Shown here: one piece after another, positions 21,309 to 64,000 of the stretch
How the letters are laid out: the number at the start of each line of letters is the position of its first letter
Numbering within the stretch: position 1 is the first letter of the stretch
DNA from: Lytechinus pictus
Lineage: Eukaryota
Assembly: GCF_037042905.1 (NCBI RefSeq)
Contig: NC_087245.1
Span: forward strand, 11,658,001 to 11,722,000
Direction: 5' to 3'
DNA: 64,000 bases
Translations under genes and position numbers: made by a program
Notes under the pieces: generated by a model
What the model was told of the DNA's origin: nothing
Database searches by the model: none
What the model saw: the letters and a program-made list of their open reading frames with translations, nothing else

Positions 21309-22580
<1,272 letters not shown>

Positions 22581-24674: not shown

Positions 24675-25025
<351 letters not shown>

Positions 25026-39136: not shown

Positions 39137-39424
39137 GGATTGTTTTGTTGGAATTGCGGGTCGCGCCACATATTCACCGTACCGTCACCATGTGTGCGGT
39201 ACAAGTTCCATCTTCAGCAGCGTTCTTCTCTTTTCTTGAAGAATTTTAGTAAATAGTAGCCACACGATCAGAGCTCGATAAAACAACGTTTGTTTTCCTT
39301 TGTGACTTATTTTTTTTAAAGGTTAAAACCGTACATGTAAACTGTACCGAAGCCTGCTGTTGATACTATTGTTATTTAAATTTAGTCGGGAGATTGAATA
39401 GAGCCAGCAGAGCGAAACGACGAC

Positions 39425-40213
39425 ATGGGTGAAGGAACTGAGATTGACCCAGCCCATACCGGCGATTGTCATGAAGTTGACAGTGGGCAAGTTACGGCTG
39501 CTGGAAACATGGCGTACCATGCGATGAACGTAGAGGATGGGGCCGCGGAGGAGGAGGAAAACTCGAAAGGCAAGATGATGTTTGTGGAATCAACGGCGAC
39601 TATGGAGACTGTAATATTTGACGATGATTCTGTGTCGTATAAAAAACTTGAAGATGGTGCAGCAGTGTTTGATGATCCAGAAATTAAACCGATGATGACA
39701 TCGAAGTTGAATGGTGATGTCGAGAAAGCAGCTCAAGTTAAAACCCGTAACGTGAGCGTATCATCTGCAAATTACACTCGACTCTACAAACGACGATGGT
39801 TGATGTTGGGTCTCTTCTGTATGCTGTCTATGAGCAATGCCTTCCAGTGGATCCAATACTCTGTGATAGGAAACGTTATTGTTGATTATTATAATGTAGA
39901 ATACATTGCTGTTGACTGGCTATCAATGATTTACATGCTTGTCTACATCCCCCTTATTTTTCCAGTTACATGGTTGCTGGAGAGGGCAGGACTAAAAGTA
40001 GTGGGAATCTTAGGGGCAAGTCTCAACTGCGCTGGGTCTTGGTTCAGATATGCGGGAGCAGTTCCTCATCTTTTTCCAGTGGCTTTTGCAGGACAAACAT
40101 TATGCGCCATCGGGCAAGTTTTTATTCTGGGCATGCCAGCCCATGTAGCAGCAACATGGTTTGGTGCGAAAGAAGTATCCACAGCATGTGCGATTGGTGT
40201 ATTTGGCAATCAG
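39425..40213 (+). CDS. FLVCR: FLVCR-family (SLC49A) MFS transporter, first coding exon
   Basis: 263 codons incl. YKRRWLML, NAFQWIQY, DWLSMIYM, GQVFILG, WFGAKEVSTACAIGVFGNQ; donor CAG|gttaat at 40213/40214. FLVCR1 vs FLVCR2 orthology not resolvable. Confidence 0.93.
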
Positions 40214-41124
40214 GTTAATAACATTTTCAATATACTTACCTGTGTGTACACCAAAAAGAGAATAATTTTTAAAATGTAAATTGACCTAGGTACAAACAAG
40301 CCTGAAATTGAGGTGTTGATCACTGTTCAAATGAGCATAGACTAGTAATTTGAAAATGATAATTAAAATGTGATTTGGTCTGGAGCCTGGAGGAGAGTTT
40401 AAGGTTTAGTGACATGTACATACATATGATTTCTTAACTGAACATTCACTTTCCATGTACATAAAAAAGATGGGATAGGGCTGAATTTCTCCATACTAGA
40501 TAAAATACAACACCCTCTTTTACCTACATGTACATGTATTTTCACTAGATCAGTGCAGGTTACAGAATAACGTCACAGATGATTGTGGGAATTCATTTTT
40601 CCCACATTACTTCAAAGCAGTTTTCCTTGCAAAAATCTTTGCCATTGAGTCCGGATTTGTATTCTCTAATTTTACAATGAATATAGTTTTAGACTTTTAG
40701 TATTTCTATCCACTCGATCTACTCGCATATCTTGGTCTAAATCTCCATATCATCTGACAATTAGTGTATGGCTAAACCCACTAAGTGTACTTAGTTTGGT
40801 CTACCATCATTTGGTCTATAAAATTTGTCTAACTGACATTAAATGTAAGTCAAATACTCTGATCTAATTTGCACTGTGTTTGAGTTTAGATATTTGGTTC
40901 ATATTCATTTTACATAATCTGCATGTTCAAAAGGGAACAAGACATTTACATGTACTCTTGCGATTATTGCTCCTCTAATTTCTTTGAAGGTTAGTGCTAT
41001 TAGGGTGACAGGATTTTCGTTCTACTTCAGCATGATTATAGGATTAACATTAATGTAGCTGAGGTTTGTTAGGATGAGATTAGGTTAGGATTTTCTTTAG
41101 GAGCAAATGTCATGGAACCTTTAA

Positions 41125-43435: not shown

Positions 43436-43885
43436 ATTGACTTTTTATAAAAAGCAGAAAAACTAGAAACATAGTATTAAAGGGATTTGGCTAAACAGAT
43501 GAAACAATGACATAGGTTGATGAGTTGTTGAATATTATAATTTTGTGACATCACATGCAAGCATCTATCCCATATGTATACATTCTATACATTTTTTTTC
43601 ATGTTTCATGATAATTGGATAAATTTCTGAAATCAAATTGTTACTCAGTTTGCAAGAGAAGTTTACCAGTCCTGGTGATGTATGAAAAATATACATGCAT
43701 TTTGATTTATAAATATGGCTCTGCCTGCCTGTCATTTCTAGGATGGACTGCTGTTTGAAAGATCTGCAATTTATTTTGTTGATTGTTGCTTGACATAGCA
43801 ACAATTCTTAACTTTATTACTTGTTCAAAAAATGCCATGTGCATGATTTTCTGAAAGAAACTTTAATAAGTCATTATTCAAAATG

Positions 43886-46800
43886 GATTATTTCAATAAT
43901 CGTGATGTATCCATCTAGTTTTGCTAGTTAATGTTTCATGGACTGCCCTCGAATATATATGTACTACACAGATCTTTTTGCGCAATAGTGCCATCTCCCA
44001 GCGAACCCATGTCAGTCCCGATCACACCTATATCATGCTTGCCGCATGTTAAACCTCCTCTTTGTTTCTTCGCATTCGCACCACGAAGTTCGCAGAGTGA
44101 AGACATCTCCAAGAAAGCCTCTTCTTGAAAGAGCTAATCAGATTCTTTTCCATCCCTTTTTACTTTGGTACTGTATGGTTTGGCTCATTTTAAATTCCCT
44201 TAGCTCAAGTTTTAAGCAATTTTGTGGATTGCTTCTCCCTTTTATCCCAGTGTACTATTTTTGTACACAGTGCCTATATGCGCTTTCCCGCGCTCTCTCT
44301 TGGGTGATAGTTCTTTGTTCAACGCCTAGTCTTAAATTATTCCTGTCCTTTGTTACGCGAATATTTCTCTTTTGCTTCACAGCCAGAGTTTCAGGTGTCG
44401 CCCATTCTCTTAGGTTCGAATCCTGAATTCCTTCTGCTGGACTTCTCTTCAGTCTCCCTTTGATAGATTTTTAGACTTGGTTTAGCTCCTATTAGAGGCT
44501 CTTATATTTACTAATTCTGCCTCTTCTGGCATGATGGATTATTTAATTAAATCAATTTATAATCCTTGCCTCTCTTGTACTTGGTTATTCAATTACTATT
44601 AATCATTAACCTTTGGGCCGTATGCATAAACACAAGCAATTGCTTATAAGCAAATGCTTTAAGCAAAAGCAAGAGCTGGTCAAGCAAAAGGGCAAGTTTA
44701 AGCAATTGCTTAAATTTGTATGCACAAGCTTTTGCTTGTGCTGAAACCTTTTGCTTGCACTGCCTAAGCAATTGCTTGTGTGTTGGACAAAGGATCGTTA
44801 CGGTTGTGCGAACATGGCACAGTAGGACAACGACGCTTCGTTCCCGACCTGGCAGAAGTATTTTTTATTACGCAAATAGGGGGAAAACAGCGCAGAGCAT
44901 CAGGGGGGGTTTCTGTGTAGATCGATGGACAAAAATTGCCGTAAAAAGTCTAAAATAACAAGAATTTGATTAGATATGAAATCACAACATAACCTCTGGA
45001 ATATGGAGCTTGAAACGGTATGAAAGTTTAATCCTTAAACGAGAATGCCATGAGTAAGCAAGAGCTCAAGCTGGTCTGGAGGTGCTTGAAAAAACGCAAG
45101 CAATTGCTTATCAAGACAAGTAAAAGGTTTGTTTTATGCATACGGTTTTAAGCAATTGCTTGTTTGGTAAGCATTTGCTTACGAGTAGTAAGCAATTGTC
45201 TGTGATTGTAAGCAAAAGCTTTTGCTTATGAGCAATTGCTTGTTTGTGTGCATACCGATTCAAGCAAAAGGCTAGCACAAGCAATTGCTTGTTTTTATGC
45301 ATACGGCCCTTTGTCGGCCTTATTAAGTAGTTAATTATTTCAGTGTTTTTTTTTGTATGAAATAAGAAAACAAATGACTCTATCTCTCTTTTGTTTCTGT
45401 TATGGCACCTTTGGGGGTCCACAGGTCCCCCCCCCCTGTTTTTCTCCCTACATATTTTTGTTCTTTTTCAGACAAACAACAAGGAGAGGATGAGCTCCGA
45501 CTTGTCTACTGGCAAGCCCATCTTCACCGCCATGGACGAGTCCTCAGATGTGGTTTTTCTGAAGCGGCAGTGCGTATGGAGGCAAAAGTAATAGTGCGTT
45601 TCTCGTCCATAGGCACGGCTCCCCGGCCTTCACCCAAAGTGAGAAGCACTTGTTTGGGGGAGCGATCGCCTCCTCAAGAGGAGATTGAGGGTCAAAAACA
45701 GGCAAATGAGATTATAAACAATCCTCTCAAAGCCTCCCAGCTGTGGTTCTTCCATTCGGGAACCTTTGAAGGCTTCCCCGAGCCACCCGTCGGCTGCCGC
45801 CCAGCAGCTTCGCAGCAGCCTTACGCTACTGCAACAGTAAGCCACTCGCGCTAAAGACCACAAGCTTTTGTGGCTCAATAGGAAGGAGCGAAAAGTGTCA
45901 CGATGTGAACCTGGTGTTTACCGACACTTGTACATTTGATGTACCTGCGGTGCAATATCACAACTTTATTTTAAGTTGCTGCATGCTCTCGAGCTCTGTG
46001 ACGTGTTACCCACCAGCTCCATGCCTTCCTTATCCTTTGATTCATGGTGTATAGAGGGCGAATTGTCAGCATCTTACACGGCTAAAACAGAATGAATTTT
46101 CTACTACCACCGCAACCTGCTGGGGCACAAATTACCCTTCTGTCGCAGGTTTTCTGGGCGCCCGCTCGAGCCATCACCTCCTAATTGCGGGGCTCAGCCT
46201 TGGCTCCCTAACCACAATCAGCTGGTTGGAGCTTTAGGGCTCATTACTGTACTTTGCTACCCTTACGTCGTACATCGAAGTTTGAGAATTTTTAGGTCAA
46301 GCTCTCCGTAATTTTTGGCGACTCCACCCCCTTCCGTGTGTACTTGAGATCTGAGGGTTCGTCCCCAACGACTCTACCCCTGTTTTCTCCGCGGCCTGGC
46401 ATGCTGGATGGATTGACGTGTTACTTAACATTACTAATCAAATCCCCTTTTGGGGGAAAAGAGCCTGGAATCTCTCCAACCCTTTTTTGCAAAACTTTCA
46501 ACCATGCGATGGAAAAGAAGAACAAGGTATACCTCCCCAAATCTTATGGGTAGCAGCTTAACACCGGGCCGGACGAAAATACCTTTCAGTACTGATTTTT
46601 CACCGACGGCCCAGCCGTCCGGGGAACCAGGGAGCTCCAGTCGGTAATCTGGGTTTTCCCCGATGCAGTCCGATAGCCCGTTAGATTTTCCGAGAGATAC
46701 CATGGGGTTTATCATTAGCAATTTGCCATGACTTCCCTTGAGCGGTGTGTTTTGTAACTGGTCACGCCAGGCTTATTCTGCCCTAGCTCCAGTTCACTTT

Positions 46801-47310
46801 TTACTGCCTCAGATCATGGTGGCGATCAGGCATGTTTTGATCTGGTCATACATGACACAAGCCTGGCTGGCGCGAGTCCCTTTACCTCAGATGAGCACCG
46901 GCTTTCGACCACTGCTCTGCTCCCCGTGTCGTCAGGGATGGGCTGAGGTTAGTTTACCACTCCTTTTGGTCCAGTGGTATTGGGTTTAACCCTTCTGAAG
47001 TATATGAATTCACATTGTGATAGTATCAAGTATTGAATGAGCGTGCACACCTCACCTTTTTGAAAAAATGTCCACTTTTTCTGAGTTGGTCCTTTCTAAC
47101 TAAAGCACAGTGGCAGTTTGGGGCTTATATGAGACTAGTCACTCAATTTTCCTTTAGTGAACTACGTCCCCGTGGGGGCTTTCACACCGCCCAGTTGGCT
47201 TAACTCATTGTAGATTTTGCCTCTTTCAGCGAGGAGTCTGTTGGTTACTTTTACCCCAGACCCATCGGGATGGAGCACACCCGAGTGTTGCCTTGCTATG
47301 GCTTGTCATC
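43886..47310 (+). mobile_element. DIRS1-like tyrosine-recombinase retroelement, copy A (3'-truncated, decayed)
   Basis: Left ITR ~43886-44070 is the reverse complement of the right ITR at ~60605-60762; body colinear with copy B up to ~47310; RT-like remnant GLTCYLTLLIKSP at ~46410-46450. Confidence 0.75.
44615..45309. mobile_element. MITE inserted in DIRS copy A
   Basis: TIR gggccgtatgcataaa / tttatgcatacggccc; TSD ttt (or ctttg); many aagcaattgctt palindromes; absent at the homologous site of copy B (~57635). Confidence 0.8.
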
Positions 47311-49588
47311 AGCGCACGCACGCCCTCGGTACTGCCAAAGTACGCACAACGCACCGACTCCGTGAGACTTTTTAGATATTCGCCGCGGCCACTTCCTGTA
47401 CCGAAGGTGCACTTAGCAAGTGCGCGTTGCCGCACGGATAATTGCGTGGCCCGTGCTTACTCGGCACTTTCCCAATCTAATTATTCAAATGAACGTGAAG
47501 AACTCACGTGCACGTGCGGAGTAAGCATGTGATCAGCACTTACAACGCACGTTGTGCTAAAATATAAACAAGAAAACACAAAGTCATATTCTATTACCAT
47601 GTTCCACATAATGACCTTATTCTTATTTATTCACACACTATATAATACATGAATTTCATGAACTATGTCCAAAATTTATTATCATGAGTGCTTGAAGAGG
47701 TTGTAGAATGTAAAAAATGAAATCGAATCGTGTATCATGAGTTCAAACAAAGACAGTGGGAAACTGTATTAGTCCGCCAAATAAAATAAAAACAAGAATG
47801 AAAAAAAATGATTTTTCATAGATTTCTATGAAATGAAATAATGCTTATTACGAGTTCCTGCGTTCACACAACGAGATCCTGCCATGGTATTCGTCCGCAC
47901 GGGGAACTGTAATAGTTCGCGAAGTAGTTCCTTAGGGGTTTTCCTTCCCTCGCGGCCCGTTGGCCGACCATCTGGTCGGGTTCGGTCATCTGTACATCAT
48001 TCCTCCAGGCCCCGGGGATTACCTTGCCATCCGCATCCTCACGGTCCACATTCACGTCAGTTTGTCCGGGCCGGTGCTTTCGAAGCAAATTGTGAAGGAT
48101 GATACAACCCAACAGGACGCAAATTCCGTTGTTAGGCTCCATCTGCAAGGTATCGCCATCGATGAGCCAATATCCCGAAACCGTTCTCTACGACACGACG
48201 AGCCCGAGAGGTCCGATAGTTCATTACCCTCTCTTTGTGTATCAGGGCATGGCGACAATATGGCTTCATCAGCCACTTTCGAAGGGGAAACGCGTCGTCA
48301 CCCGCTAGGAAATTAGGAAAATTCTGGTCGTCACCTGGCAGTGGATCCGGTGGTGGAAATCCAATGGTGGTTCCCTCAAGTGCTCCCGGAATGCTCCCCA
48401 AAACGTGGACTGGTTGAACACGCCTGCATCTGAAGAGGAGCCGTTGGCCCCAATATTGCACCACAAGCATGACAAGAAGGAATAGTTAGAATCCACGATT
48501 GCCATGAGCACCACAGAGCAGAACCACTTATAAGAGCGATCCACTCGTCCTGGGTAGAGGGCATGGTGCGCATCTATCTCCTTATATTCCTCGTATAGGG
48601 CGGTGCAAACTTCCGATACGAACATGGATATACTATTGTGTGCCACCCGGAAGTCATATGCAAGGGACCTGCTTCCCGTTGCCAAAAAAGCGAAGAGTGA
48701 TGGCGAGTTTCAGGCCAGGTTCCAAGGCGCGGCGACTCCTGAAACATTGAAAGTATCTACACCATTGATATATAGTCAATATGTGTAATCACACGTAAAG
48801 ACAATTCCTCCTTTTTTCTAAAAGGAAAGGCAATCCCCCTCCCCATAATGGAGAATATAAGTTTTAATTGGCATTATAATTGCAGTTAGTTTTGCCCAAA
48901 CCTTTCTAATAGTACATGGACCTTTTCTATTCAAGAAGGATTGCTTCAAAACTGTCAATATTCTTTATTACAAAATTAAGGAGTTAGAAGTAGCGAATGA
49001 AATAATTGTTTATAACACGTCAAGTAATATTTGCCGTCCAAGTTATCGATTTTTATAAAGGTGCCACGTCTTGCTCATGCCCTGCCACTTGAAGCTGCTC
49101 TTGCAGTATCAGAAGTATTTGGAGTCTCTGTGGTAGAAGAGGCGGCATTTTAAAGGACGTCAGAAGATCAATCTCTATAAATATACCCCACCACATAGGG
49201 GGGGGGGGGGGGCTTACGTTCATCGCAAGTGCATGCAGTTGCAACCTGCGCGTAAGTAAGGACGGCGTACGTGAGCAGCACGTGTAAGTACGGCCTCCGT
49301 TCCAAAATGTGTCGAACGCACGGAGATCGTACGTTGTAAGCAGGTACAACTCACTCCACACGTGCGCGACGTACATTGCATGCAATTGCTCACTGCAAGG
49401 CGTGACACGCGGGCAGCGCACGCACTACGTACTTACACCTTGCGTAGTCGTACGAGTGACGTGCGTCGATGCACTTGCTCCCTGCGTTCGCCACTTTTCC
49501 CTACGTTTTCAGAAAAACGCAGCGACCGTAGCCTCCCCCAAAAAACGTACGGCCAAAGAAACCGTACGGCGGCTTGTGACCAGGGCTT
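47310..49588 (-). mobile_element. PIF/Harbinger transposon, decayed, one end missing
   Basis: Contains transposase remnants; CpG-rich cacg/cgtac subterminal repeats at both ends; terminus-like ggcttgtgaccagggctt at ~49570-49588 with no inverted partner near 47310. Confidence 0.7.
47864..48750 (-). pseudogene. Harbinger (DDE_Tnp_4 / HARBI1-ALP1-like) transposase pseudogene
   Basis: Frameshifted segments: LEPGLKLAITLRF, ATG..SLAYDFRVAHNSIS, SVVLMAIVDSNYSF, IGANGSSSDAGVF, GDDAFPLRKWLMKPY, NYRTSRARRVVENGFGILAHRWR, CIILHNLLR, RIPWQ. Confidence 0.9.
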
Positions 49589-50567
49589 ACAAGTATGTCA
49601 AACATTAAAACTTTGCTTTGTTGATATTTTTCTTCCAAGTTTGATGATTTTTCGTGTTTGATTTTACTCGTTATCATCATATCATATAAGATCATTTTTA
49701 TTCTAATCCTCCCCATTTTTAATAGCTTATTGCAATTGGTGATTGAGAAAGCTAACATGAATTTTGATGAATATCATTGTTGAGCTTATTATCTATCACA
49801 GAGGTTTTAAGATTGACTATTGTCTTTCTCAATGTCTTGCCATGCCTTTACCATTTCATCTTCTGCCTTTCTTTCATTCAACATGTAAGAGAGAATGTGA
49901 TTGTAAATAATTGGTTATCATCCATTTTTAATCAGATCCAGGACTATAAGAATGAAATATTACAATTCTGCAATTTCCTAAATAAATTTCTAAGAGAAAA
50001 TAGAATGGAATAAAATAGAATCAAGGAATTCTCATCCCTGACAATCTTACATTTAGATCATTGAAAAATGCATCATGGGAACATATCTGTGTCTCAATTT
50101 TATATCTATTGAATAATAATTGTCACATGGATATACTCAAATAAAACTCACATCAAACTTGGGCCATTCAGTTTGATATTATTTACAATTTATTTCAGTA
50201 TAATTTTGTTGGTTTACAATTAGAAATAAAAATGGTTTCTTTCTGATAAAATTCAGGACCAAAAATATACAATGTAGATTCTCAAAAAGATATCACTTAT
50301 TTCCACTTCATATTTACCTTGTTTCGAGATACCCAGAACTGATATATATCTTTACAACTGAATATACCTTTGATCGACCTGTTTCAAAGTTTCATTTGTC
50401 TATCTTCAACATATCATCAAAATAATTGTTTTGTTTTTCAATATCACCACTCTAACTATGAAGGATCCTGTACTGATCAACTCATAATAACCTGAATCAC
50501 ATTCAAATATAATATAACAAATATAACACTTAACTCATAAACTTCTCGACCCTTTGTTCTAATCACA

Positions 50568-51029
50568 TATGGGCAATTCCATAGGTTGGTGGCATGAGCT
50601 CAATGTGTCTTTGTACATATAGCCCATCTGAACCGTAACGTGAGTAACCACTTTATCTGCACCCCTAGTAAAAACCATGTGTTCTTTATTTTTTGAATTA
50701 TATACAAATTTGTCTCCCTAATATACTTCTTTGAAATGGATATAATCAACTTTCATAAAAGCCTTGCATGAGGGCACTTTTCACTTATGTCCACTTTTCA
50801 TTTTATGCATGTCCAAATCATGTAACATGAGTAACCGACACATTTCAAAGATTTGCCAGGAGCATAGTGAAATTTCCCAAGTTTTGTTTTTATACAAAGG
50901 ATAGTCAGACTGCGTACTATGTTGTGATAAAGAGATGTTTAGTTCCTATCAATAATAATGGAGTTACAGCTCCAAGTATGAGTCAAGGTGTCTCCAAATG
51001 TAACGTGAATAACCGTGGAATAGCCCATA
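50568..51029. mobile_element. MITE
   Basis: TIR tatgggcaattcca / tggaatagcccata; internal gtaac.tgagtaacc repeats. Confidence 0.55.
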
Positions 51030-52282
51030 TCAATATAAAACATTTCATTTTCAAACAACACTGCGGACTCCATGCAGTTTACCATTTCACCAAGAACATC
51101 ATACATTCAAATATAATCTCAACTTCACTGTTATCATCAGAGTTTTTCTAAAACTGTCGTCTTTTCCTCTTAACCATCGTTTGCCTAATCCCAACACTAA
51201 CATCAACTGTGAGGATCCTGTATTGATCCACCAACTAACACAAGCATTTATATCCAACATCAGTCAAGGACTGAGATAAATAAAAAGCAACATATATCGA
51301 AAGTTCTCACTATAAAATCAGTTTACTAAATAACTGAACTATTAATGTCCATCGGATTATCATTCTCATCAGTGTTCATAGTTCTATCAAACATTCCTGC
51401 TTCAGTGTGACAAACAATCATGTGTATACGTCAACAAAATCAATCTTATCGGTTACTCTCGGTGAATCTCAGGGAATCTCGGCGTCCTTTGCGACTTTCG
51501 GAAATGCTCGGCTTCAATGAATAAAAGTCATCAGGGAATTACGTCCCACCTTGGCACCATCTAAAATTTAAATAAACCAAAACCATTTCTACAATATATC
51601 TTAAAACAAATATTTCTTCTCTTGTAAATAGCATTTATAAATCCAATTCAAACTTGTCTGACTTTCATACATTTATTTATCTCACTTTTTCAAACATTTG
51701 ATTACTAACTATAATAAGCTTCAACTTCAAATGTAACTTTTCAACAACATTAAAGTCTCTATAACCCCAAGAAAATGTATATTGATTTCTACAAAACTAT
51801 CACGATAAATCACATCTTAATTCACATTATATTATACATGTTATTTTTCTTTTTCTTTTTGTATAACAAAATTTAAGGATGGAAAAGTCATTTACACTCA
51901 CCGATGACTCAGCAAAACAGGCTCAGAAATGATTGAAATACTGCTTTCTGACCTCATGCAGGTAATAAAGATTAGCAGCTCACAAACTGGAAAATAAGGC
52001 TTCTCTAAAAGAAAATACCGTAAGCCTAGAGATATGCCTTCAGAATGGTTAGTAAAAAATAGTAATTTCTCTACTGGCTTCAAAACTGCACATAAGCTGT
52101 GTGCTCACCAAAGTTTAGAAATGGTGTCTGCCAAAACCTAATGGAAAACTACTGCACATACACCCTTGCCCTAAACTATCCCAAGCAGCTGGTCAAAAGG
52201 AATGGATCCCTGCCTGGGACAAAAGGGACCTATTCAAGCACGGCATGGAAAATTCACTGCCCTGGACAAAAGTAACTATTTC

Positions 52283-52737
52283 AATAGACCAGTTCGTAGT
52301 TACTCATGGACAATTTTCGGTCAAATGACCTTTCATTTCTTTTATTATGATAGGCAGATTTCAAAGCAAAATATTACGTAAGCTTGCCTTACATAGCAGG
52401 ATGAAGAAATTGAATAGACCAGGTGACTAGAATAGCACACCAATGAATACTTTATGAAGGTATTTGATGCATTCCTACTTTGAATGCATATCATAGCATG
52501 TTGCACAATGTACTTGGCAAACTGTGAAAACCAGTCGTTCGTGGACGCGTTGTTGTTTTTTGTGGATGTAAATGAAAACCACCATTCAAAAGAATATATG
52601 AATAATCAAGACATCAAAGTTGGTGCTTATCTCATTAGATTTTAAACCACCATGTCACTTTAGTACAAATGACCTTCCTCTGATCATGCGTAGAATCTTT
52701 TGATCAGTCGCAGAAAGGAACTACAAACTGGCTTATT
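52283..52737. mobile_element. MITE
   Basis: Imperfect TIR aatagaccagttcgtagtt / aactacaaactggcttatt. Confidence 0.55.
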
Positions 52738-54409
52738 AGCTATGGTCATCGATGGCAACCTAAATTAAAGAAGCTCTGCTCATTGAAGAATAAAATCAAA
52801 TTCCTGTATCTTTGCAACCTGGCTAGAGTACAAGATAAGGTTAAATAGTTTGGCTAAAAAACGGACAAATAAATAAAATAAAATGTATTTTCAATGTGAC
52901 AATAATGTTGGAGGCAAATGCCATTAATTCAGCTTTATCACACAAAGGGATCGATGCTATAAAGTGTTAAACATTTCAGTAATTGAAAATTACTGAAATG
53001 CTGCAGATTGAATACTCAGGGGGAAAAAGCTCTGGTATTATTCTGTACATTGCTTGAACGAAAAAAAAAATGATGAATGACTCATACACTTCAGTAAAGT
53101 ACAACGCAACATTAGGCTGGGATATTAAGCTGGTGGCAGTAGGCTGCTTCATCCCCATCAGCCCAAGTTTGCAATGTACAACCGGTATGTGATATAAAGT
53201 AAAATGGCAAAAAATGTCATGATTGTTTGGGATGGCCTAATGGCTTGCTCTTGAATCCTAGGTTAGGGTCTTTTTTTCAGGATGATTCTCGTCAATGCTG
53301 TCCACTCATCAATGGATGTGGACCCAACTTCATAATTTTGGTTAAGTAGTGCGCTTTTTGGTGAGTGATTCAGCTAATTTGCAAGACTTGTATAAAGTTC
53401 TTATGACAATGCACTTGCACTTGGGTTTTTACTAGAAATAATTCATTACATAATTGATAATATTAATAATTTATTATTGTATCATAATTATAATTACTTA
53501 CCATTGCGCACTATAGGTATTGAAACGTGGATCCTAAAGTATGCTTTGTGACCTAATATTATTCCTGTAATCATACCAGAACCTTCTTGTCAGGGTGATT
53601 TGGACAGGGTACTTACAATTATGCAATTTATCTTTATCAAGTCTATTCAGGGTAGAATCGGCGCATACATGTGTATTCAAATTGACAGAGTTACTCTGTG
53701 CATTTTGATGATGGTTGATGTTCGCCAAGAGCAATACCTCACAATCAGGACTGGAATCCATGAGAGCATTATTCGTCATGTAGTGAAATCTCTTGTCAAG
53801 AAAATGGATCCATTAAATTGTTTGTACTGATGAAATGCAAGAAGGAAGAAGTGCACTCCAAACGAATTCATGTACATTCTAATGGGTGAAACATAGGATA
53901 ACAAAAAATGAGACCAATATTTGTTTTCTTCAGACAGTTGCTTATCAAGGAAAACAATGTAAGTGACAAACCGTAAATTTTGCCCCTTCAAACATTGTCA
54001 GGTCTAGTGCTAAAATCCTTATTTTTTATTGTTTATTTATTTATTTGATATTTTGACAGGGTAGCCCATTCACCAATAAGTAGTGGTCTTCCATAGGGCC
54101 CTGAATAACAAACATATTTACAAAATGCATAACGTATGTACAGAATGTTACGGCATTAAGATTCACATTAGGATTTGAATGTAAAACGAAACATTAACAA
54201 ACTTAGCAGCAAACAAAACGCAGACGGGCACTCGTTTGACCTATAATCAAATATCAATAAATCAAATTAACTGAGAACGAAATCTTGAAAATACTGATAA
54301 TATACATCAAATCATCAATGTCATGCTAACACAAGATACGCACAACAATTGTTCGAAATAGACATCAGAAATGAAATACTCAGAATTTTTTTTTTTTCCC
54401 AATTGATTA

Positions 54410-54583
54410 TGCGCCCGGCAGCAGCTGTGCAGCGCCAGATCGACGAGGCTCTATACCTTTAATTGTAGAACGCCAAACAGGTTAGAGGCAACTCCCATCT
54501 TTTAACGTCTTTTGATCTGACGCGGCTGGGGTTTAAACCCCCAGCCTCCTAGTTGTGAGACGGACGCTCTTCCAACTGAGCCT
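54410..54583 (-). mobile_element. tRNA-derived SINE (5' portion)
   Basis: Minus strand reads aggctcagttggaagagcg (A box) ... gggggtttaaacccc (degenerate B box), then a non-tRNA body; no tRNA acceptor stem. Confidence 0.65.
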
Positions 54584-55545
54584 AATTAATTTTTCTTATT
54601 CCACAGGTTTGGTATTTTGGGGGGGACTGCCAGAGGCATTCCACTTGTTTAATATTATGTCTTCGGAATGATTTGCAGATTTTACAGTTTACTTTGAATG
54701 ATTACAAAATTTATCATGTTATTAATATAAGCAGATAAAAGTGGATAGAAAGAAGAATGGCAGAGCTACATGTGTACATGTTTTCCTTAAAAAGGTGTAA
54801 ATTGAAATTGTGATCAAGTTTCCAGAAAGTAGAGAAACTTAAGATGCATTTAGAATGCCGAAATGAGTTTCCAGCATGAAATTGATTGGAGTAGACAACT
54901 TTCATAAAATAACTTGATACCAAATACCAAAAGAAAGTTTTGGGAGCTAGAGAGAGCAACCCTTGAGACCCCGTGGTAACAAAGGCCAAAAAAAAAATCC
55001 TTGTTTTCACAAACTCTGGCCTGAGCTTCCCAAGGCGTAATCCCACCAACTCGATGTTTGAAAATACCAGGTATTCTTTGATCTGGAAATTTACCCTGAT
55101 CTACCCCAATCAGAAAAAATGAGGATTTTTTTACCGTGTAAATTCAAAATATATGTATTATTCCCAAAAGAAAATATCTGCTTTAATAATTAGGTACATG
55201 TCTTTTGAAATTACAAGAACTTTGACAGGGATTTTTTCCAAGGTCACAGGTATTCTAGCAGTAAAGCAATTTACAAGAACTTCTACTTTCTTAACCCAGC
55301 AAGTAGATGAACATGGACGCCATGGGATGCTGAGCTAGCGTCCTAGTTATTTTGAATATCGTGCCTCGCGTGCTAATAAGACCAGACTGCAGTATTTTTG
55401 TAAATTCAAGAACCTTTACCAAAAGAGTCTCCATCTGGTCGATTTTGAGGCCTAAACAAGTTCTCTTAAATTTCTGGGTTTTCTTGTGAAAACTGGTCTA
55501 AATAAGTCTACAAGTTGTGTTTGTCTGGCCAATCAATCTCACAGG

Positions 55546-55910
55546 CACTAGCGTATCGAAGGGGGGGGGGCAGGGGGACAGACTGTCCCCCTGACGAGTC
55601 ACAACTCATGCAGGGGACGTATCCCTGCCCCCCTGACGAGTCACAACTGATACAGGGGACGTGCCCCCCCCCCCCCCCCTTTTAACCTGAAGCCTTTTTT
55701 TTTTTTGATTGTCAATTTTTTTTTTCTGGTAAGAAATCTTTTTTTTTTGGTTGAAGACCTTTTTATTTGCTTGTCAAATTTTTTTGTGGTAAGAAATCCT
55801 TTATTTGTGGTTGAAGACCTTTTTTTTTTTTGCTTGTCAATTTTTTTTGCGGACGAAATATCCTCCAAAAAATTTGCCCCCCCTTCTGGAAAATCCTAGG
55901 TACGCCAGTG
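55546..55910. mobile_element. hAT-type MITE
   Basis: TIR cactagcgta / tacgccagtg; perfect 8-bp TSD ctcacagg (55538-55545, 55911-55918); internal direct repeats. Confidence 0.8.
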
Positions 55911-57058
55911 CTCACAGGCACAGAGTATTCTTCTGTTCAGTGATATAGAGAAAATAACAATGTTTCTCCTGTCTGAAATTTCTGACAGCTTCATGTACTT
56001 CCCATGAACTTCAACCTTGAAAAAGGTTTGATAGGAAACAAGTGATCTTGAATACATACAGTACATGTACTACTTTACCTGTTGCAATGAGCCTTTGAAA
56101 CCCCAGATTTTTTTTTTTTGCTGAAATTTCTATTTTCACTTTCATGTATTTTGTACGTAAGAAACACTTGACATAACATTTTGTTTTACGTAAAACAACA
56201 ATTATTTTTCTTGTTTATAAAATGACAAACTTTCATTTTGCAGTAACAAAAACTGTTTTTGTTTTCTTATCCTGTACTTCTTTGTGATAATTCTTGGTAG
56301 ACCTATCAATCAAATTCAAATTGAATGAATTGAAAATGGTGGATGTGACCATCTCAGACAATGGGGCAATTATGGGGCATAATGTTATTTTCTTTACTTC
56401 AATAATCGTGATGTATTTATCTACTTTTGCTAGTTCATGTTTGATGTACACAGATTTTTGCGCGATAACGCCATTTGCAAGCGAACTCGTGTTAACTTCC
56501 GCTCACCTATATCATGCTAGCACCATGTTAAACCTTATCTTCGTTTCTTTGCCCTTGCGGAGTTGAGACGTCACTAAGAAAGTCTCTTCTTGAAAGCGCT
56601 AAGTACACTTCCAAAATACGTTTTTAGGTCATATTTTGTTGCTTCTTTGCAACCAGTTTCAAAGCCAATCCTTTTCACTTCGGTACTGGATGGTTTGGCT
56701 TGTTTTCTTTTCTCTGAGTGACTTTTAAGCAATTTTCTTAATTGCTTCTTCCTTTTCTATCCCAGTGTACTATTTTTGTACACGGTGCCTATGCGAGGTC
56801 TTCTTCCTCCCATAGCTCCCCACGCTCTCTCTTGCGTGATAGCTCTTTGTTCGACTCCTGGTCTTAATTTATTCTCGTCTTTTGTTACGCAAATATTTTC
56901 TCCTTTGCTTCACAGCCGGAGTTTTGGGCGCCTCCTATTCTCTTAGGTTCGAAACATGAATTCTTCCTCTGCTTTCCTTTTTAGATTGCAGCAGGGCTTA
57001 AATTCTTTTAAAACAGTCTCCCTTTTATAGGTTTTTAGACTTGGTTTCGCTCCTTTTA

Positions 57059-57520
57059 TACCCGACTTAGATCTCCCTCTCTCTCATGTCATAGTAGACA
57101 ATCGTCTGGAGAGAACATGGCATGAATATCCTTATCAAAAAGGGGCGGCTCAGATCATTTGTGGTAATCGTGATGTTCTTCGTCTCCCTTTGAACTCGCG
57201 AATTGCGATGTCATGGCAAAACGTCAATCAAGGGAGAAAGCGTGCGCTGCACAACGATCAAAGCCATGTGCTCAGTTAAAGGACTTTGTTTTCTATGCCG
57301 TGTTTACGCCGTGACCGTTTAGATCTACAGTCCAACAGTTGATCACGCCGTGTGATCTTGCGATTGTGCTAGACTGTCTAGGGTGTATTTTCCGTCACGA
57401 TTACCTCAGATTCGTACTTTGTCCTTTGTGCCGAGACCGTTAAGATCTAACGACTCGTCTAGAACGACCTGCGGTAACCTCCAGAGGCACTCTAGATTTT
57501 TGGCATATTTAAACAGGGTA
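57059..57520. mobile_element. Insertion in DIRS copy B (MITE-like)
   Basis: Absent from copy A at ~44490; weak termini tacccgacttagat / atttaaacagggta. Confidence 0.55.
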
Positions 57521-58997
57521 TTAGAGGCTCTTTATTATTAAGCCTCTTCTGGCTTGATGGATTATTTAATTAAATTAGTTTATAATCCTTGCCTCTCTTG
57601 TTCTTGTTTAACCAATTATATTAATTATAATCCATTGTCTGTCTTATTAAGTAGCTCATTTTTTCAGTGTTATTTAATTACCTAGAAGAACAGAACAAAA
57701 TGAATTCATTTCTCATTTGTTTTCTGTTACAGCACCTAGGGGTCCATGGGTGTCCCCCCCTTTTTCTCTCCCTACATATATTTGTTCTTTTCAGACAAAC
57801 AACAAGGAGAGGATGAGCTCTGACTCATCTTCAGGCAAGCACATCGGGAGGGGAAACCCGAATCCTTGGCGTCTTCCCCAGGTCTGCCCAACCCACCAGT
57901 CATCGGGTCACTGGGCCGGGGAGAGATCGCTGCTCTCTCCCCGGCATTAAAATTGACTAGGCTCGATGCCCTTGTTACTCCTGTACCTCGGGTGTAGGCA
58001 AAGGGCGGTCAGACCCTAGTCGTAAGAGGTGCGTTGACTCGACTGAGTCGGCTTTTCGCAGAACACCTCACAGGTCGCATCCGCCTGTGTCCCAGCACAC
58101 CATAGTGATTGGCCAGGCGTAGAAAACTTTTCCACGCAGAGGGAAGCTGCCAGTGTTACTCACGTTTCACTGGCGCCCAGGCCTGCACAGTGGGTGTATC
58201 CCCCTGGGTACCCGGTTTTCAGGCACTGCTTATGGCAGAGTTGAAAGATTGGGGGAGCGTTCCATCAATTACTTGCCCGATAAGTTATTAGTTCTGACTT
58301 TTCGCCTTGATTCTGTTTGGCTGAGAATCACTGTAACTTTCTGATAGAACGGGATTGGTTGAATAGCATCCGACATTCCTTTCATGAAACACCCCCAGAT
58401 GTCCATTACGAGCAGATACCCCTGTGTCTAACGGCCTTTTTTTTAGCTCGCCCTCCGTCACAGAGCCCCTGTCTCTGATAGTATACTCTTAATGAATCTA
58501 TGCTGACCATTGTCAGCACATTCTATATACAATCCGAGAAGCACTTGTTTGGGAGAGCGATTGCTTCTCTCCCCAAGGAGGAGATTGAGGGTAAAAAACA
58601 TCTTACCTGGCTGGAACGGAATTAATATTCCACTACCACCGCTACCTGCTGGGGTGCATATAACCCTATTGTCACAGGTTTTTCTGGGCGCCCGCTCGAG
58701 CCATCATCCCCCTATTTGTGGGACGCGGCCTAAGCTCCATAACCACAATTAGCTGGTTGGAGTTTCAGGACGTCATTACTCTTATTCGCTACCCTTACGT
58801 TGTACATCAAAGTGTGACTCCACCTCCTCCAGGTGTTCATGAGATCTGAGGGTTCGTCCCCATCGACTCTAGCCCCGTTTGCTCGGCGGCTTGGGCTGCT
58901 GGATGGATGGATGTGTTATGTAACACTTCTAATCAAATCCCCTTTTAGGGGCAAAGAGCCTGGAATCTGTCCTACCCTTTTCCCCACACCTTCTAGG

Positions 58998-59170
58998 CAT
59001 GGGCTGCGGAAGCGGGGGGTCTGGGAGGGCTTCAGCCCCCCCACTTTTTTCCAAAAGCATGTACAAAAACGTAAAAATGGCCATATGATTGTGATTTTTT
59101 GCATGGTCAGCCCCCCCCCCCTCCACTTTTTGCTCAGCACCCCACTTTTAAAACTGGTCCGCGGCCCCTG
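58998..59170. mobile_element. Small hAT-like insertion in DIRS copy B
   Basis: catgggctgcggaa...tccgcggcccctg; absent from copy A; ctagg on both flanks. Confidence 0.55.
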
Positions 59171-59789
59171 CTAGGGTGCGATGGAGGAGAAAAACAAGGC
59201 ATACCTTCCCCAATCTTAAGGGTAGTGCCTTTTCACAGGGCTGGATGGAAATACTTTACAGTACTGATTCTTCATTGACTGCGCATCAAATAGATGGTTC
59301 CGAGACCCTGGAGAAGCGATGCTTATAAAAGGGGTCACCACGATACATTAATACATTACAAATAAAAAGCACAGTGGCGGGTTGGGGCTTATTATAGGAG
59401 AGTAGTCACCTGACTTCCCTTAGTGTACTTCGTCCCTGTGGGGGCTTTCACTCCACCCTAGATGGCTTAACTCATTGTAGTTTTTGCCTCTTTCGGCGAG
59501 AATTTTTTTTTTACCACAGACCGATCGGGATGGAGCACACCCGAGTGTTGCTTCTTTTGGGTGTGTCATGAGGGAGGCTTTCACACTCTCCTGTCGTAAA
59601 TTCTTCACCTTTTACACAACGTGTTCTTGGGTGTAGGAATTTGTGCACAGATCTCGCTGCTTTCAAGCACAGCCAGACCTGAGCCTCCCCAGGCCGCGAG
59701 CATCCCGTTGTGCTACACTTTGGAGGCTTTCACACCACCCCAGTATTATACTCTTCCCCTCGGCACTAAGTGCTCTACAGGAGAACGAT

Positions 59790-60290
59790 ACCTTTGGCTC
59801 GTTGTTCCAATCTAGAATTTATTCTAAATTGTTGAAGCACTTGTCCCAAGCGCCCTCCAAGGAGGAAACTTGCGCATTTTTCGAGTCTCTCTAAAAAAAT
59901 TTCGCCTTAGCATATTCTCCGTTTGAGCCTAGTTTAGGCCTTCTTGATCACATTACGTTGCGTGCTTATGTTTTAGGTGGGAGAGGCGTAGTATCCGGCC
60001 AATTCCGAAACCTCCTTTCTTGGCCAAGAATTACACAACCCTAGATCTGTCTTTATCCGGGTGTTCGAGTGGTTTCTTGAAATGACATAGTATGTTCGCT
60101 TATTCGAACATCTCTTGTATTCTTGCGCGCTTTTTGCCTTTCCCGCTTCTTCGCTTTGGATCGTTTTGGCGATCAAAGCGATGGGCGCAGGTGCGTTGTT
60201 TTTCATGTGAGGCCGGAGGCTCTCAGTACTAGAAGTATCAACTCATCTTGAGCACTCTTCTTCAAGGTGTTCTCCTTGACGACTTACAAC
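59790..60290 (+). pseudogene. Decayed DIRS tyrosine recombinase C-terminal region
   Basis: Motifs in expected order across frameshifts: VP(W->stop)NL, FLAKN, S(R->L)WIV.AI, A(H->L)STR..SS(W->stop)ALF. Confidence 0.7.
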
Positions 60291-60814
60291 GCCTCTGGCG
60301 TTTTGCCTTTTCCTTACGTAAGGAAAATTCCTGGGCTGAGGAGAGTTTGAGCCCTCAGCCTTGAAAGCAACAGCCTCCTCATCTCCATCTCCCTTGAACT
60401 TAGTTTAATATTTCCTTTTGTGACATGCTTCCCACGGTTATCCGTGCCAGTCTAGCAAAAGTAAATGGATACATCACGATTATTGAAGTAAATCATGAAA
60501 ATACTTACCCGATTTTCTTATGTATGAGATAATCGGATGTATCCATCTACTATCCCACCCTTTGTCCCTCGCCTTGCATGGCAACATGTCTTTTTTGTGA
60601 GTGCACAAAGAAGATGTTAAACGTGCATGCTAACATGATATAGGTGTGAGCGGAAGTAGATATGGGTTCGCCAGGTGATGGCGCTATTGGGCACAAATCT
60701 GTGTACATATATATTCGAGGGCAGTCCATGAAACATGAACTAGCAAAAGTAGATGGATACATCCAATTATCTCGTAAATCAGAAAATCAGGTAAATATTT
60801 TCATATTTAATGAA

Positions 60815-61237
60815 GAAATTATTCTAATGAATATGCAGTGAGTAAAATGATGTCATGTCCCAACTTATTCTTTTGTATTTTTCATATTCATGTTAATACA
60901 AATTGTATCCTCCAAGAATGTAAAAATATAATTGACTTCTGGTTATTTGCAAGATGATCATTGCTGAAAACTAATTTGTTACACTAGAGACATTTTTTAG
61001 TTTGAAAATATGAAATAATTATTATTTTATGTCACAAAATAAGAATCTATGATAATAGGAAGTGATGACATAATCAGCTCACATAAGACGCATGCATAAC
61101 TGCTTTCACAAAATATTGCTAAACTTTCAAAATTCAATAACTTGATTATGATAGATTTATGAAATTTTCAGCATTTTGATTATCTAATTTTAATTTATTT
61201 GTATTGATAATATTTTCAGCCTGGGGGTTCCCCTTCA
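60815..61237. mobile_element. Partial TTAA-type element related to 4776-5359
   Basis: Shares aatattgctaaactt...aaataactt and ends ttttcagcctgggggttcccttcaa; left end not found. Confidence 0.5.
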
Positions 61238-64000
61238 AGTCACAGTTTTAATCTACATCTTGTATTATATGTTTGCATGATTTGTGTGCCTACTTGAAGT
61301 GTTAATAGAAAAAAAAATCTTCAGGGGCTTATTTATCAAAACTGACATTTTTAAATGAAAAATGTCAGCAAAGTATATGTTTTACCAGAACAGTCATTTA
61401 TGTCTACTTGAACTTTATCACTAGTAACTACATGTAGTAACAATCAAGAAATATTAATGCAGTAATTATGTCACAAAAAAAGAAAGGTCAATATTTGTCT
61501 TTTATTTTGATACTCCCACTTGGAGGGTCCTTGCAAATATTGCTACAAAACCCATACTCACTGGCCGTGCAGTCAATGGGCAAAAGCAGGAAGAAGTCTT
61601 GTCAATTGTGATTTCCCCCATAACAGTCCTGATTTTGAGATGCAGGAAAGACAATTTTCTTTTGATGCCGTCATGTCTCATGAAATTTAATTCAGGTTAA
61701 TGGTCTGAATTGTGAAAAAGCTGTCTCAAATTAATTGAGGATGATAAATACTTGTCAGGCTGCTTATGCTGCCTGTATAGATAATACATTTGAATCACCA
61801 GAATGATAACAGATTGACTTGGTTCTGCTGAGAAGAAAGAGCACATTAGGATTGCATTAATACATTGTTCACTGCAAGGTATAGCATTATAAGTTTAATA
61901 GCGCAAAATCAGAAATAGAATTAGAAGCTCCCATATAAAGGAACTATATCTAGGTACTTTACTTCATATTGATCATCAGGCTCCGGGGCATAACACAAAT
62001 GTTAGTGATTAATCGTACGCTTGATTATCACAATTGAATTTGAATGTACATTTTAGTCAATGCAATCAAAAAAAAAAAAAAAAGTTCTACGATCACTGCT
62101 AAGCTACTTGTGTTGCAGCCCCCTGCAGTCTGGAAAGAATTTGTTTGATTTAGTGTGACCTATGAAATTCTTTCATTCCCTGCCTAGATCGAGGGCAAGT
62201 TTTATAGGGATCACTGATAAACTGTTGGGGTGGGCCGTACAGTATATTTTAAGCTTTTATTATAAAAACCAACCTGACATCAGCTAGACGAAGCCGATCG
62301 ATTGCAGCCTAAAAGCAGGCTTGGGCGATTGGATGAGGAGTCTGCCCTCCACCTTCTCTATCACCATGGCTTGCAGGCCCTCGGTCCGATTCTGAGCAGC
62401 GATAGCTTGCACGCAGCTGCATACGCGGCGCAGTGAATCAAATAGCCGAGCTATCCCAATTTGTTCAGTTCAATATCGCTGGTCCTAAATATGAAGATTA
62501 TAATGCGTGCAGTCCAGAGAAAGCGAATTGCTCACAAATATGTGAATTACTCCTGGCTGGTCACTTTAGATATGGATTTTACATTTGCAGAAGTGTATTG
62601 AAATATATGTACCTTGGGTTAACATTTCATACCCACGTTGTACCAGTAATCCAAGTTATCTCATTTCCAAGTAAGTTAGTAGGCCTATATTGTCTCTATC
62701 GGGATATGGGTTTCCTGTTTGGTATGGATACAGTTGTAGAATTCATTAGAACATATAAGTGGTAGTCTCCGGGGTAGTCTGTAATGATGAAACATGCTGA
62801 GAAAACGTGATGGTATGGTATTGAGTACAAATGTTATGTATGCACGTGTTAGCTTCATAATGTGGTGCAGCACCATCCTGAGTTTGCTCAATCTCAAGAT
62901 TTTAGCCCGATCGGCCCTCTTCGCGATTAATCTCGTGATTTAAGAAACCCTGTCTCCACCAGCAGAAGATGAGCAATTCGTGCTCGAGCAATGATGTATG
63001 ATGTAACGCTATGAATAAATAATCTTGAGTGCATCTGCACCTGCGAATTAGCGGGATAATTCGTAAATAGCACGCTATTTTCCAGATAATCCTAAGTTGA
63101 CTTGGGATTGCAATCTCGAGATTAATCCAGCGAACCCTCCCAATGATTGCGTTTCCATTACAAATAATGTCGAGATTGTTCAGATCTGGATAATTTGCCG
63201 GATCAGAAATAGTGCTCTAATTTGAAAACTATAGTAGTCAGTACATTAATAATATGTATTTTGCTATCTACTATTTGTTAGTTTCAATTCAATTCATTGA
63301 AGCAAAGTACTAGTACTTAATACTAGAGCAGTGACTATTGAAACATATTTACCATAGCCCTTTATGTTTTACTTGGACATCAGCAATACACTGTCCTGCC
63401 AAGTTACCATAAACAAAAAACAGAATATTAGTAGGGCTGTCACATTTTTATGTCATATTTTTATGTCATATAGGGTGCGTTTATGCACCCCCCTTTGTTT
63501 AGATCCCAGAATCATGATGTGAATCATGAATAGAAACACATTTCTGCAGAATCACGGTTGTGTTTAGTCAAAAGTAAGCATATTTCAAATTGCAAATGAA
63601 TAACAGAAAAGGAGTGTTTAGAAAAACGTTTCTACTTTCTGCAGAATCATTTTCGAAAATGGTTGCATAAACATAAACAATGATTTGATTTATGATTCTA
63701 TGACGTCATTATGTCGGTCAACTTCTGTGTTCATGTCATACTTCGCGGTGCCAATGGTATTCTTCGCTTGCGCTTCACACAGTAGCCGTACACATTTATT
63801 GAAAATCAATGTTGTGTATCTTTTGCAATTACATGTACATGTAAACCCACATTGAAGTTGACCTATAATTTTTGCGTCAAACTGTGCACTACGATGAGCA
63901 CTGGGTAGGATTGAAATGAGGGAGAAACAACGTTGGAGAGGGCCTGGTTTGATTCTGCAGTAACCATGATTTAGGTTTGTGTTTTGAATCATGGTTCATG

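Follow-up and report, generated by a model that had tools for sequence, protein, structure and literature searches.

We have identified an element in the window, a 64,000-nt stretch of Lytechinus pictus DNA, that is probably an old copy, fixed or dying by now, from a non-autonomous, multi-copy DIRS1-type family mobilized in trans. Inverted terminal repeats (ITRs), a right extension, a two-part internal complementary region (ICR), a 3-nt core at both ends, and related copies were all present, and neither pol nor tyrosine recombinase (YR) sequence was detectable.

DIRS1-type ends and circle-junction core

A preliminary description had placed the element at 56393-60804. An element is there, and the best fit to its exact ends is 56394-60809 (Table 1); no target-site duplication beyond the terminal TTA was found. 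The ITRs were 69.5% alike between 56402-56545 and 60605-60770 with a 21-nt gap (blastn E 1.4e-16), the left ITR and right ITR core were identical at 109/131 positions without gaps, and the conserved part of the left ITR carries a 21-nt deletion relative to both the right ITR and the sister copy. The right extension was delimited by the end of the ITR alignment near 60778-60780, past which the ICR match continues.

Table 1. Coordinates of the element, its parts, and its sister copy in the window.
Feature	Position	Strand	Remarks
Sister copy	43888-47312	+	left ITR and collinear interior, same orientation
Whole element	56394-60809	+	4416 bp; TTA at both termini
Left ITR	56394-56545	+	divergent part of ~18 nt, then conserved part
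Interior	56546-60451	+	without detectable coding similarity; collinear with sister copy
Probable secondary insertion	57058-57521	.	begins ATACCC, ends GGGTAT
Pyrimidine tract, AG, and nearby ATG	57772-57823	+	49/51 identical to sister copy, not significant because the block was picked after the fact
Secondary MITE	58998-59170	.	13-bp terminal inverted repeats (11/13), 5-bp duplication CTAGG
Recombinase-like words	59862-60350	+	PFEP and STRS..S-stop-ALF, by eye; unproven vestige
Left ICR	60452-60491	+	complementary to 56394-56433, 37/40
Right ICR	60489-60551	+	complementary to 60748-60809, 88.9% over 63 columns
Right ITR	60605-60778	+	136/155 versus left ITR of sister copy
Right extension	60779-60809	+	~31 nt, complementary solely to right ICR

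The claims that 60452-60494 complements the left terminus and that 60495-60551 complements the right-end extension withstood formal alignment. The reverse complement of the former segment matched 56391-56433 at 38/43 positions, or 37/40 when trimmed, that of the latter matched 60748-60804 at 51/57, and blastn aligned 60489-60551 with 60748-60809 at E 3.9e-17. Trimmed to 60452-60491, the reverse complement of the left ICR also matched the left end of the sister copy (43888-43927) at 37/40 positions. Local scores of the element interior against the left and right termini were 67 and 85, far above the maxima of 26 and 29, respectively, in 300 dinucleotide shuffles.

The left and right ICRs overlap in the TAA of 60489-60491, the circle-junction core. 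Core parsimony at three genomic ends gave 0 mismatches for TTA, 1 for TTT, 3 for ATT, and 5 for GAT, with TTA at 56394, 60807, and 43888 and TAA at 60489 within the ICR; the TTA fit draws on these three ends, and for the right one it needs a single 1-nt gap. The core is most likely this overlapping TTA, not cat/gat, and the junction predicted earlier (ttttcat/gatttacttc), which has no 3-bp overlap, lies 2-5 nt off. TTT and cat/gat junctions ranked under TTA, as did ATT, a less likely but possible core that would take a single substitution in this element plus a 1-nt deletion in its sister. In Table 3 of PMC3266345, a TTA core is listed for Dictyostelium DIRS1-2 and ATT is commonest. No circle junction appeared among the 15 contig joints listed of 189. 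The left flanks of both copies weakly resemble the right extension, a likeness spotted after the fact: scores this high occur in 20/534 background windows for either left flank and in 489/534 for the right flank.

Interior and search for coding sequence

The interior has a T-rich 5' part and a middle of 47-51% GC versus 35-36% in the flanks. No ORF of 100 aa was found in the element except one running into the MITE. Neither the sister copy nor the contigs of three runs contain segment 57058-57521, a joint from 57058 to 57542 occurs in X1, X3, and X5, and the segment is probably a secondary insertion. Depth over the MITE was very high in each of the four runs (bin 58998-59191), with joints from 58981 to 59171/59175. 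The block at 57772-57823 may be a splice acceptor or the relic of a gag start and is offered as a lead only. GGCTTTCAC words at 59443, 59576, and 59725 were rejected as tandem repeats, as the units between them fail to align. An Rfam search of 43800-61000 gave four sub-threshold matches, none within either copy.

RT, RNase H, and methyltransferase profiles scored at decoy level in both copies. The best pol profile scores were 0.5 bits in the element and 3.0 in the sister copy, with decoys up to 2.4, and held-out DIRS sequences scored 27.7-85.1 bits when decayed 9% and 12.8-62.8 bits when decayed 17% (18/18 trials each), using probes that were insect-skewed or taken from DIRS on host contigs binned with bacteria, none of them known to come from an echinoderm. 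A frameshift-tolerant pol search scored 21.2 in the element, versus 15.9-26.8 in the null (n = 20) and 49-152 in 4/4 controls at 17% decay. In six frames of both copies, Pfam returned only sub-threshold noise and no YR or DUF3504 match. A Harbinger DDE match lies beyond the sister copy. Searching 59706-60419 with phmmer against 1.84 billion proteins gave 0 matches, and among longer proteins, word-seeded searching with 59862-60350 left 0/340 candidates at E up to 10. For gag, which is poorly conserved and for which few natural upstream ORFs served as queries, tblastn found no match below E 0.2 in the element.

No YR ORF was found in the element or sister copy, and recombinase profiles scored at decoy level in both; the sensitivity of these profiles is low, at 0.8-25.2 bits for 17% decay, and frameshift-tolerant YR controls decayed to the same extent scored 17.7-41.0 versus a null of up to 28.1. 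The words picked out by eye at 59862-60350 were supported neither by seven natural YRs (best 15/200 shuffles) nor by three profiles or the frameshift-tolerant search, and 1/16 natural YR pieces beat 100/100 shuffles there. We estimate a chance of roughly one in three that this stretch is a genuine vestige. The preliminary description had spoken of dead ORFs and had called for translated searches with DIRS RT, RNase H, and YR. These searches found no RT, RNase H, methyltransferase, or YR similarity, which on that description's own terms refutes a decayed autonomous copy and leaves the DIRS1-type ends standing.

Related copies, age, and origin

The interior and sister copy are collinear, with 84% identity over 1643 aligned sites (left ITR included), and no 3' part of the sister copy (ICR and right ITR) could be located within 47200-56300. 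Mismatches between the copies showed no codon periodicity (137 over 824 sites; 2448/5000 permutations as high) and 9/11 middle indels were not multiples of three, a pattern that is not decisive, as neutral decay after insertion gives the same. The union of both interiors exceeds 3 kb, long enough for a worn gag-pol-YR. Diverged collinear contig pieces occur in X1, X3, and X5 (organisms A and B), none spanning the whole element, and one contig joins 56821 to 60380. Of six small-share runs listed, one was used. Sequence look-ups found no look-alikes of the element, the terminal 21-mer had 0 matches in viral contigs, and a second terminal-motif scan had none; the 12/12 metagenome matches to the 21-mer all arose by chance, each covering 20-23 bp of DNA with 53-60% GC. 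Metagenome and viral contigs thus yielded no helper element, and no RNA data set was listed as containing the sequence.

In intact natural DIRS loci, the ICR and termini are near-identical (97.7% in L025, 100% in L027) and can therefore be used as a clock. Here, the ICR and termini differ at 9/97 positions and the ITR core at 22/131. Because the element's own repeats are only 9-17% diverged pairwise, and controls so decayed keep a pol signal in 36/36 trials, the element was probably without pol when inserted.

Under the model for DIRS-1 (PMC7192593), a family member would be transcribed from inside the left ITR, and the RT of an autonomous DIRS1 element would copy this RNA to single-stranded cDNA. 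Section 21 of that paper infers that the DIRS-1 RT acts in trans; for a truncated DIRS-1 construct, it reports that retrotransposition in trans was not completed, for which the authors blame an unspliced marker. The right ITR would template most of the left ITR, and the ICR would template both extreme ends and set the circle junction ...CATGAT-TTA-CTTC.... A helper tyrosine recombinase would then integrate the circle into a TTA of the genome, so that each end carries TTA and no duplication arises; the copy at 56394-60809 would later have drifted 5-9% and gained its two insertions.

An origin as an autonomous DIRS1 element, whose gag, pol, and YR were functional at insertion and then decayed or were lost in place, is unlikely. 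A length of 4.4 kb falls within the DIRS1 range of 3974-6283 bp (PMC3266345), the middle is GC-rich, the ATG block at 57813 is common to both copies, and the YR-like words stand just before the ICR, where three natural YRs align best to the same frame and one of the three scores above 100/100 shuffles. However, this sole YR match is 1 of 16 tests, pol is undetectable although it was always found in controls at equal or double decay, and pol would have to have been lost in both copies; the aperiodic mismatches and indel lengths described above point the same way, though neutral decay would yield them too.

Three other explanations are less probable still. Cryptons have a YR ORF and short direct terminal repeats and are not known to carry long ITRs. 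Descent from a Crypton-like tyrosine-recombinase DNA element, which would use its internal junction copy on a folded DNA strand and need no RNA step, is improbable: no RT was found, as it would predict, but neither were YR or DUF3504 matches in Pfam, long ITRs, a right extension, and a two-part ICR occur in DIRS1 order and size, and the single-stranded DNA fold of the ICR-to-end stretch (z = -10.9) is a direct consequence of the ICR match and not independent evidence. Slightly more remote is a chimera, in which left and right halves of two family members recombined or, after insertion, unrelated DNA took the place of the interior between genuine DIRS1 ends. The right ITR is closer to the left ITR of the sister copy than to its own partner, the sister copy sits only 9 kb upstream and is oriented alike, and near-identical contigs occur only from 58133 onward among the matches listed; yet the ITR difference is small for such lengths, the left ICR is equally close to both left ends, and collinearity of the interior extends to the sister copy and to contigs under two species labels. 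An assembly artifact, or complementarity arising by chance in AT-rich DNA, is already refuted, despite an ICR of only 31% GC, as 0/300 shuffles approach the ICR scores and X1 contigs show 1 difference across 59336-60732 and 0 across 60735-61500.

Comparison with known systems and significance

Dictyostelium DIRS-1 likewise has an ICR complementary to both extremities, which is needed for retrotransposition there (PMC7192593), and TTA ends (PMC3266345, Table 3). Unlike our element, it is autonomous, with three ORFs and longer ITRs of 316 bp (PMC7192593). The DIRS1-like elements BmDIRS1, GaDIRS1, TnDIRS1a, and SkoDIRS2 share the order lITR - lICR - rICR - rITR - rE, the 3-bp ICR overlap, a ~16-nt core common to ITRs and ICRs, and total length, and differ from the element, as far as PMC3266345 describes them, in its lack of detectable pol and YR, its TTA core in place of the commonest one, ATT, its 9-17% diverged repeats, and its two secondary insertions. 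The ITR / ICR / right-extension architecture recognized in the preliminary description agrees in order and size with Table 3 of that paper, where divergent ITR, conserved ITR, extension, and ICR sizes are 16/155/30/40-62 for BmDIRS1 and 19/148/27/46-56 for GaDIRS1. The corresponding sizes here are ~18, ~135-155, ~31, and 40 and 63.

LARDs and TRIMs are ORF-less derivatives of LTR retrotransposons. They likewise have a large non-coding interior between intact cis ends, with a possible 0.9-kb mini form as the counterpart here, but use LTRs and integrase where the element has DIRS1-type ends and recombinase integration. TOC1 of Chlamydomonas has split direct repeats, not ITRs and an ICR, and N in Repbase names denotes non-autonomous. 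TOC1 is likewise an ORF-less passenger in DIRS order and is termed a non-autonomous DIRS retrotransposon in PMC9940879. Zebrafish DIRS-N1 (PMC5400779), considered here by name alone, is probably a non-autonomous animal DIRS family, and its name suggests a precedent. Our literature search, with Repbase and most subscription papers outside it, found no description of an ORF-less family of the ITR/ICR type.

Evenly balanced, in our judgment, is the proposal of a LARD-like, ~4-kb, ORF-less DIRS1-type family with a TRIM-like 0.9-kb mini form (the 56821-60380 joint) in at least two species. The ITR/ICR architecture has been known since DIRS-1, so the finding is mostly ordinary and its addition small but usable. 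Screens that require coding domains (ReDoSt, PMC3266345) miss ORF-less elements, and the animal DIRS1 load is thus probably undercounted. If the proposal is true, such a family would provide evidence from nature that the DIRS1 cycle can run in trans from start to finish, including integration by the recombinase, a point not demonstrable in the experiments described in PMC7192593; the mini form would confine the cis signals to ~430 bp per end, and the weak likeness of both left flanks to the right extension would suggest that target-site recognition reaches past the 3-bp core. As natural deletion constructs, ORF-less copies and the possible mini form mark out the cis signals and are informative on whether the recombinase acts in trans.

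Termini and circle junction

Self-comparison of positions 56300–60900 yielded three strong inverted matches. The right half of the internal complementary region (ICR, 60489–60551) paired with 60748–60809 (88.9% over 63 columns; E 3.9e-17), the left half (60452–60503) paired with 56386–56433 (86.5% over 52 columns; E 3e-12), and the inverted terminal repeats (ITRs) at 56402–56545 and 60605–60770 paired at 69.5%, including a 21-nt gap. In gap-free counts, 37 of 40 positions agreed between the left ICR and the left end and 51 of 57 between the right ICR and the right end. Terminus scores of the element interior were 67 and 85, compared with maxima of 26 and 29 in 300 dinucleotide shuffles. Contigs from X1, a sequencing run compared with the window, spanned 59336–60732 with one difference and 60735–61500 with none; because they carry the ICR and right end near-identically, an assembly artefact as the source of these features was ruled out. 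These results confirm the ITR, ICR, and right-extension structure that the preliminary description had assigned to 56393–60804. As single-stranded DNA, the ICR-to-right-end segment folds with a z of –10.9, because the ICR matches the right end. Sizes of the divergent ITR (~18), conserved ITR (~135–155), extension (~31), and ICR (40 and 63) fall beside those of BmDIRS1 (16/155/30/40–62) and GaDIRS1 (19/148/27/46–56) in PMC3266345. In run X5, the bin containing the ICR (60356–60549) had a summed depth of 13,361 versus 184 and 782 in adjoining bins, with 1,352 at position 60464.

Read in reverse, the ICR spells ...TTTTCATGATTTACTTCAAT.... The left end of the element matches this reading from TTTA at 56393; the left end of a related sister copy, at 43888, matches it from TTA. 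After one missing G, the right end of the element continues through ATTTA up to 60809. Summed over these three ends, mismatches to candidate junction cores numbered 0 for TTA, 1 for TTT, 2 for TAC, 3 for ATT, and 5 for GAT. Because TTA has the fewest, the element is best drawn as 56394–60809 (4416 bp); ATT is a conceivable alternative core in a comparison of three ends only. With TTA as the core, TAA at 60489–60491 is common to both ICR halves and corresponds to the 3-bp overlap described in PMC3266345. The cat|gat junction proposed earlier has no such overlap and ranked below TTA. The left flanks of the element (56369–56393) and sister copy (43863–43887) both bear a faint likeness to the last part of the right extension, equalled for each by 20 of 534 background windows.

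Coding capacity and age

Apart from one 118-aa frame that runs into a MITE, the element contained no ORF of at least 100 aa, and Pfam detected nothing relevant in it. Probes were built from natural DIRS sequences. An RNase H motif gave 10 matches, one of them a DIRS locus, which led to 120 pol proteins and 35 tyrosine recombinase (YR) pieces, mostly from insects; other clades were represented by 12 loci on host contigs within bacterial bins and by another 18 loci. Searched with tblastn against both copies, the 120 proteins gave zero matches at E 0.05, and natural ORFs gave a single match (E 0.23, minus strand). For pol, chunked profile scans reached 0.5 bits in the element, 3.0 bits in the sister copy, and up to 2.4 bits in decoys; for YR they reached 5.9 bits in the element and 7.6 bits in the sister copy, both on the minus strand of the T-rich 5′ part, with a window background of up to 9.4. 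Frameshift-tolerant searches with all three profiles left the element within the null range. What had been described as dead ORFs is instead an ORF-less element.

Sensitivity was controlled using three held-out DIRS loci decayed by substitutions. Pol scored 27.7–85.1 bits at 9% decay and 12.8–62.8 bits at 17% (18/18 trials each), and 1.3–31.7 bits at 25%; the YR control was weaker (0.8–25.2 bits at 17%). Intact natural loci have ICRs 97.7% and 100% identical to their termini and ITRs 97.4% identical. In the element, by comparison, 9 of 97 ICR-terminus sites and 22 of 131 ITR-core sites differ, or about 5–9% per lineage, and the element is old. Because pol is detectable at this level of decay and none was detected, we infer from the sequence that pol was probably already absent when the element inserted.

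By eye, frame +2 of 59862–60350 contains YR-like words, PFEP and STRS..S-stop-ALF. PFEP also occurs in the natural YR of one DIRS locus (L026), and the second word is near to the HSTR motif named in PMC3266345. None of six tests firmly supported this stretch, and 1 of 16 natural pieces beat 100/100 shuffles. If real, it would be an ancestral relic that predates insertion.

Near-complete eukaryotic DIRS elements, some with ITRs and ICR, lie on contaminating contigs in bacterial genome bins (L024–L030, L036–L053), one such bin having eight YR matches. L018 (3314–6087 of a 30.7-kb contig in a viral collection) has DIRS gag and pol frames without a YR frame, and the closest named relatives of its proteins are from parasitoid wasps.

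Sister copy, family, and surroundings

The sister copy has the same orientation as the element, and the two align as seven collinear blocks with identity at 1382 of 1643 sites. It stops at ~47312, where a truncated Harbinger-type element without a matching left end starts; a search of 47200–56300 did not recover the 3′ part of the sister copy. A 12-mer at 49576 that resembles a terminal repeat occurs once in the window.

Features of the window
Feature	Positions	Details
Sister copy	43888–47312	Left ITR and interior kept, ICR half gone
MITE within sister copy	44615–45309	695 bp, 16-bp terminal inverted repeats, TTT duplication
Truncated Harbinger-type DNA transposon	47313–49587	DDE_Tnp_4 match ~48141–48311, minus strand, E 2e-7
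MITE in element	58998–59170	11/13 TIR, CTAGG duplication
Ubiquitin-conjugating enzyme host exons	21309–21971, 24675–25028	Pfam-supported
MFS transporter host exon(s)	39398–40279	Pfam-supported

Comparison with four runs at 80% likeness gave 867, 1816, and 11,713 contigs and 1986 reads (~6/100 of one RNA run). Among the matches listed (24 of ~14,900 pieces), diverged pieces from two species labels (organisms A and B) lie along the whole element. Among the 15 of 189 joints listed, one from 57058 to 57542 recurs in three runs, and joints from 58981 to 59171/59175 occur in X5. Because both repeat gaps in the sister copy, 57058–57521 and the MITE of the element are most likely later additions to this copy. 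One X5 contig among the same joints links 56821 to 60380 with 31 letters between and, if its ends are whole, represents a mini element of ~0.9 kb. At 57252–57445, X1 and X5 depth is ~10 times that of the element backbone, and RNA reads are one-stranded there (23 vs 0) and two-stranded in the MITE; this segment could represent either a repeat that is transcribed or a cis signal common to family members. In both X1 and X3, near-identical contigs begin at 58133, 7 nt ahead of an acceptor-like AG (58138–58139), and the matches listed include no near-identical piece for 56394–58132.

The window is repeat-rich, animal-type DNA (37% GC). It also contains a 2-kb foldback element (9053–11029; inverted arms 98%) enclosing AT-rich 31-bp tandem repeats, and scattered clusters of a 160–190-bp repeat family (13028–13980, 15825–17400, 33670–34916).

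Transcription, proposed cycle, and classification

In the RNA run, reads at 56476–57833 had first mates on the minus strand only (depth 0.6–23 vs 0) and, among the matches listed, differed from the element by 2–25 letters. The outer left ITR bin had zero reads, and the unique middle of this copy was almost without them. Given usual library strandedness, this pattern is consistent with other family members being transcribed in the sense direction. X1 and X3 are uninformative on expression.

PMC7192593 shows that DIRS-1 requires its ICR after first-strand synthesis and that its cDNA is single-stranded and mostly linear; there, reverse transcriptase activity in trans is inferred, the other DIRS-1 proteins could not be assayed in trans, and the circle junction could not be amplified. 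For the element, we propose that a transcript would start inside the left ITR and be reverse-transcribed by a helper, an autonomous element lending its enzymes. The right ITR would then template repair of the left ITR, and the ICR would template repair of both tips before joining and insertion at TTA by the helper YR.

In the literature searched, ORF-less families with ITRs and an ICR were not described; a precedent may lie in Additional File 3 of PMC3266345, in Repbase, or in the work of Goodwin and Poulter. Look-ups by sequence returned nothing resembling the element. Non-autonomous DIRS-order elements are already known, namely TOC1 (PMC9940879) and, by name, DIRS-N1 (PMC5400779); PMC9210276 and PMC8969392 describe the same end type and many degenerate families. 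The element is a real feature with DIRS1-type ends, ORF-less rather than carrying dead ORFs; it works like DIRS1 but fails two defining coding features and is therefore not classed as an autonomous member.
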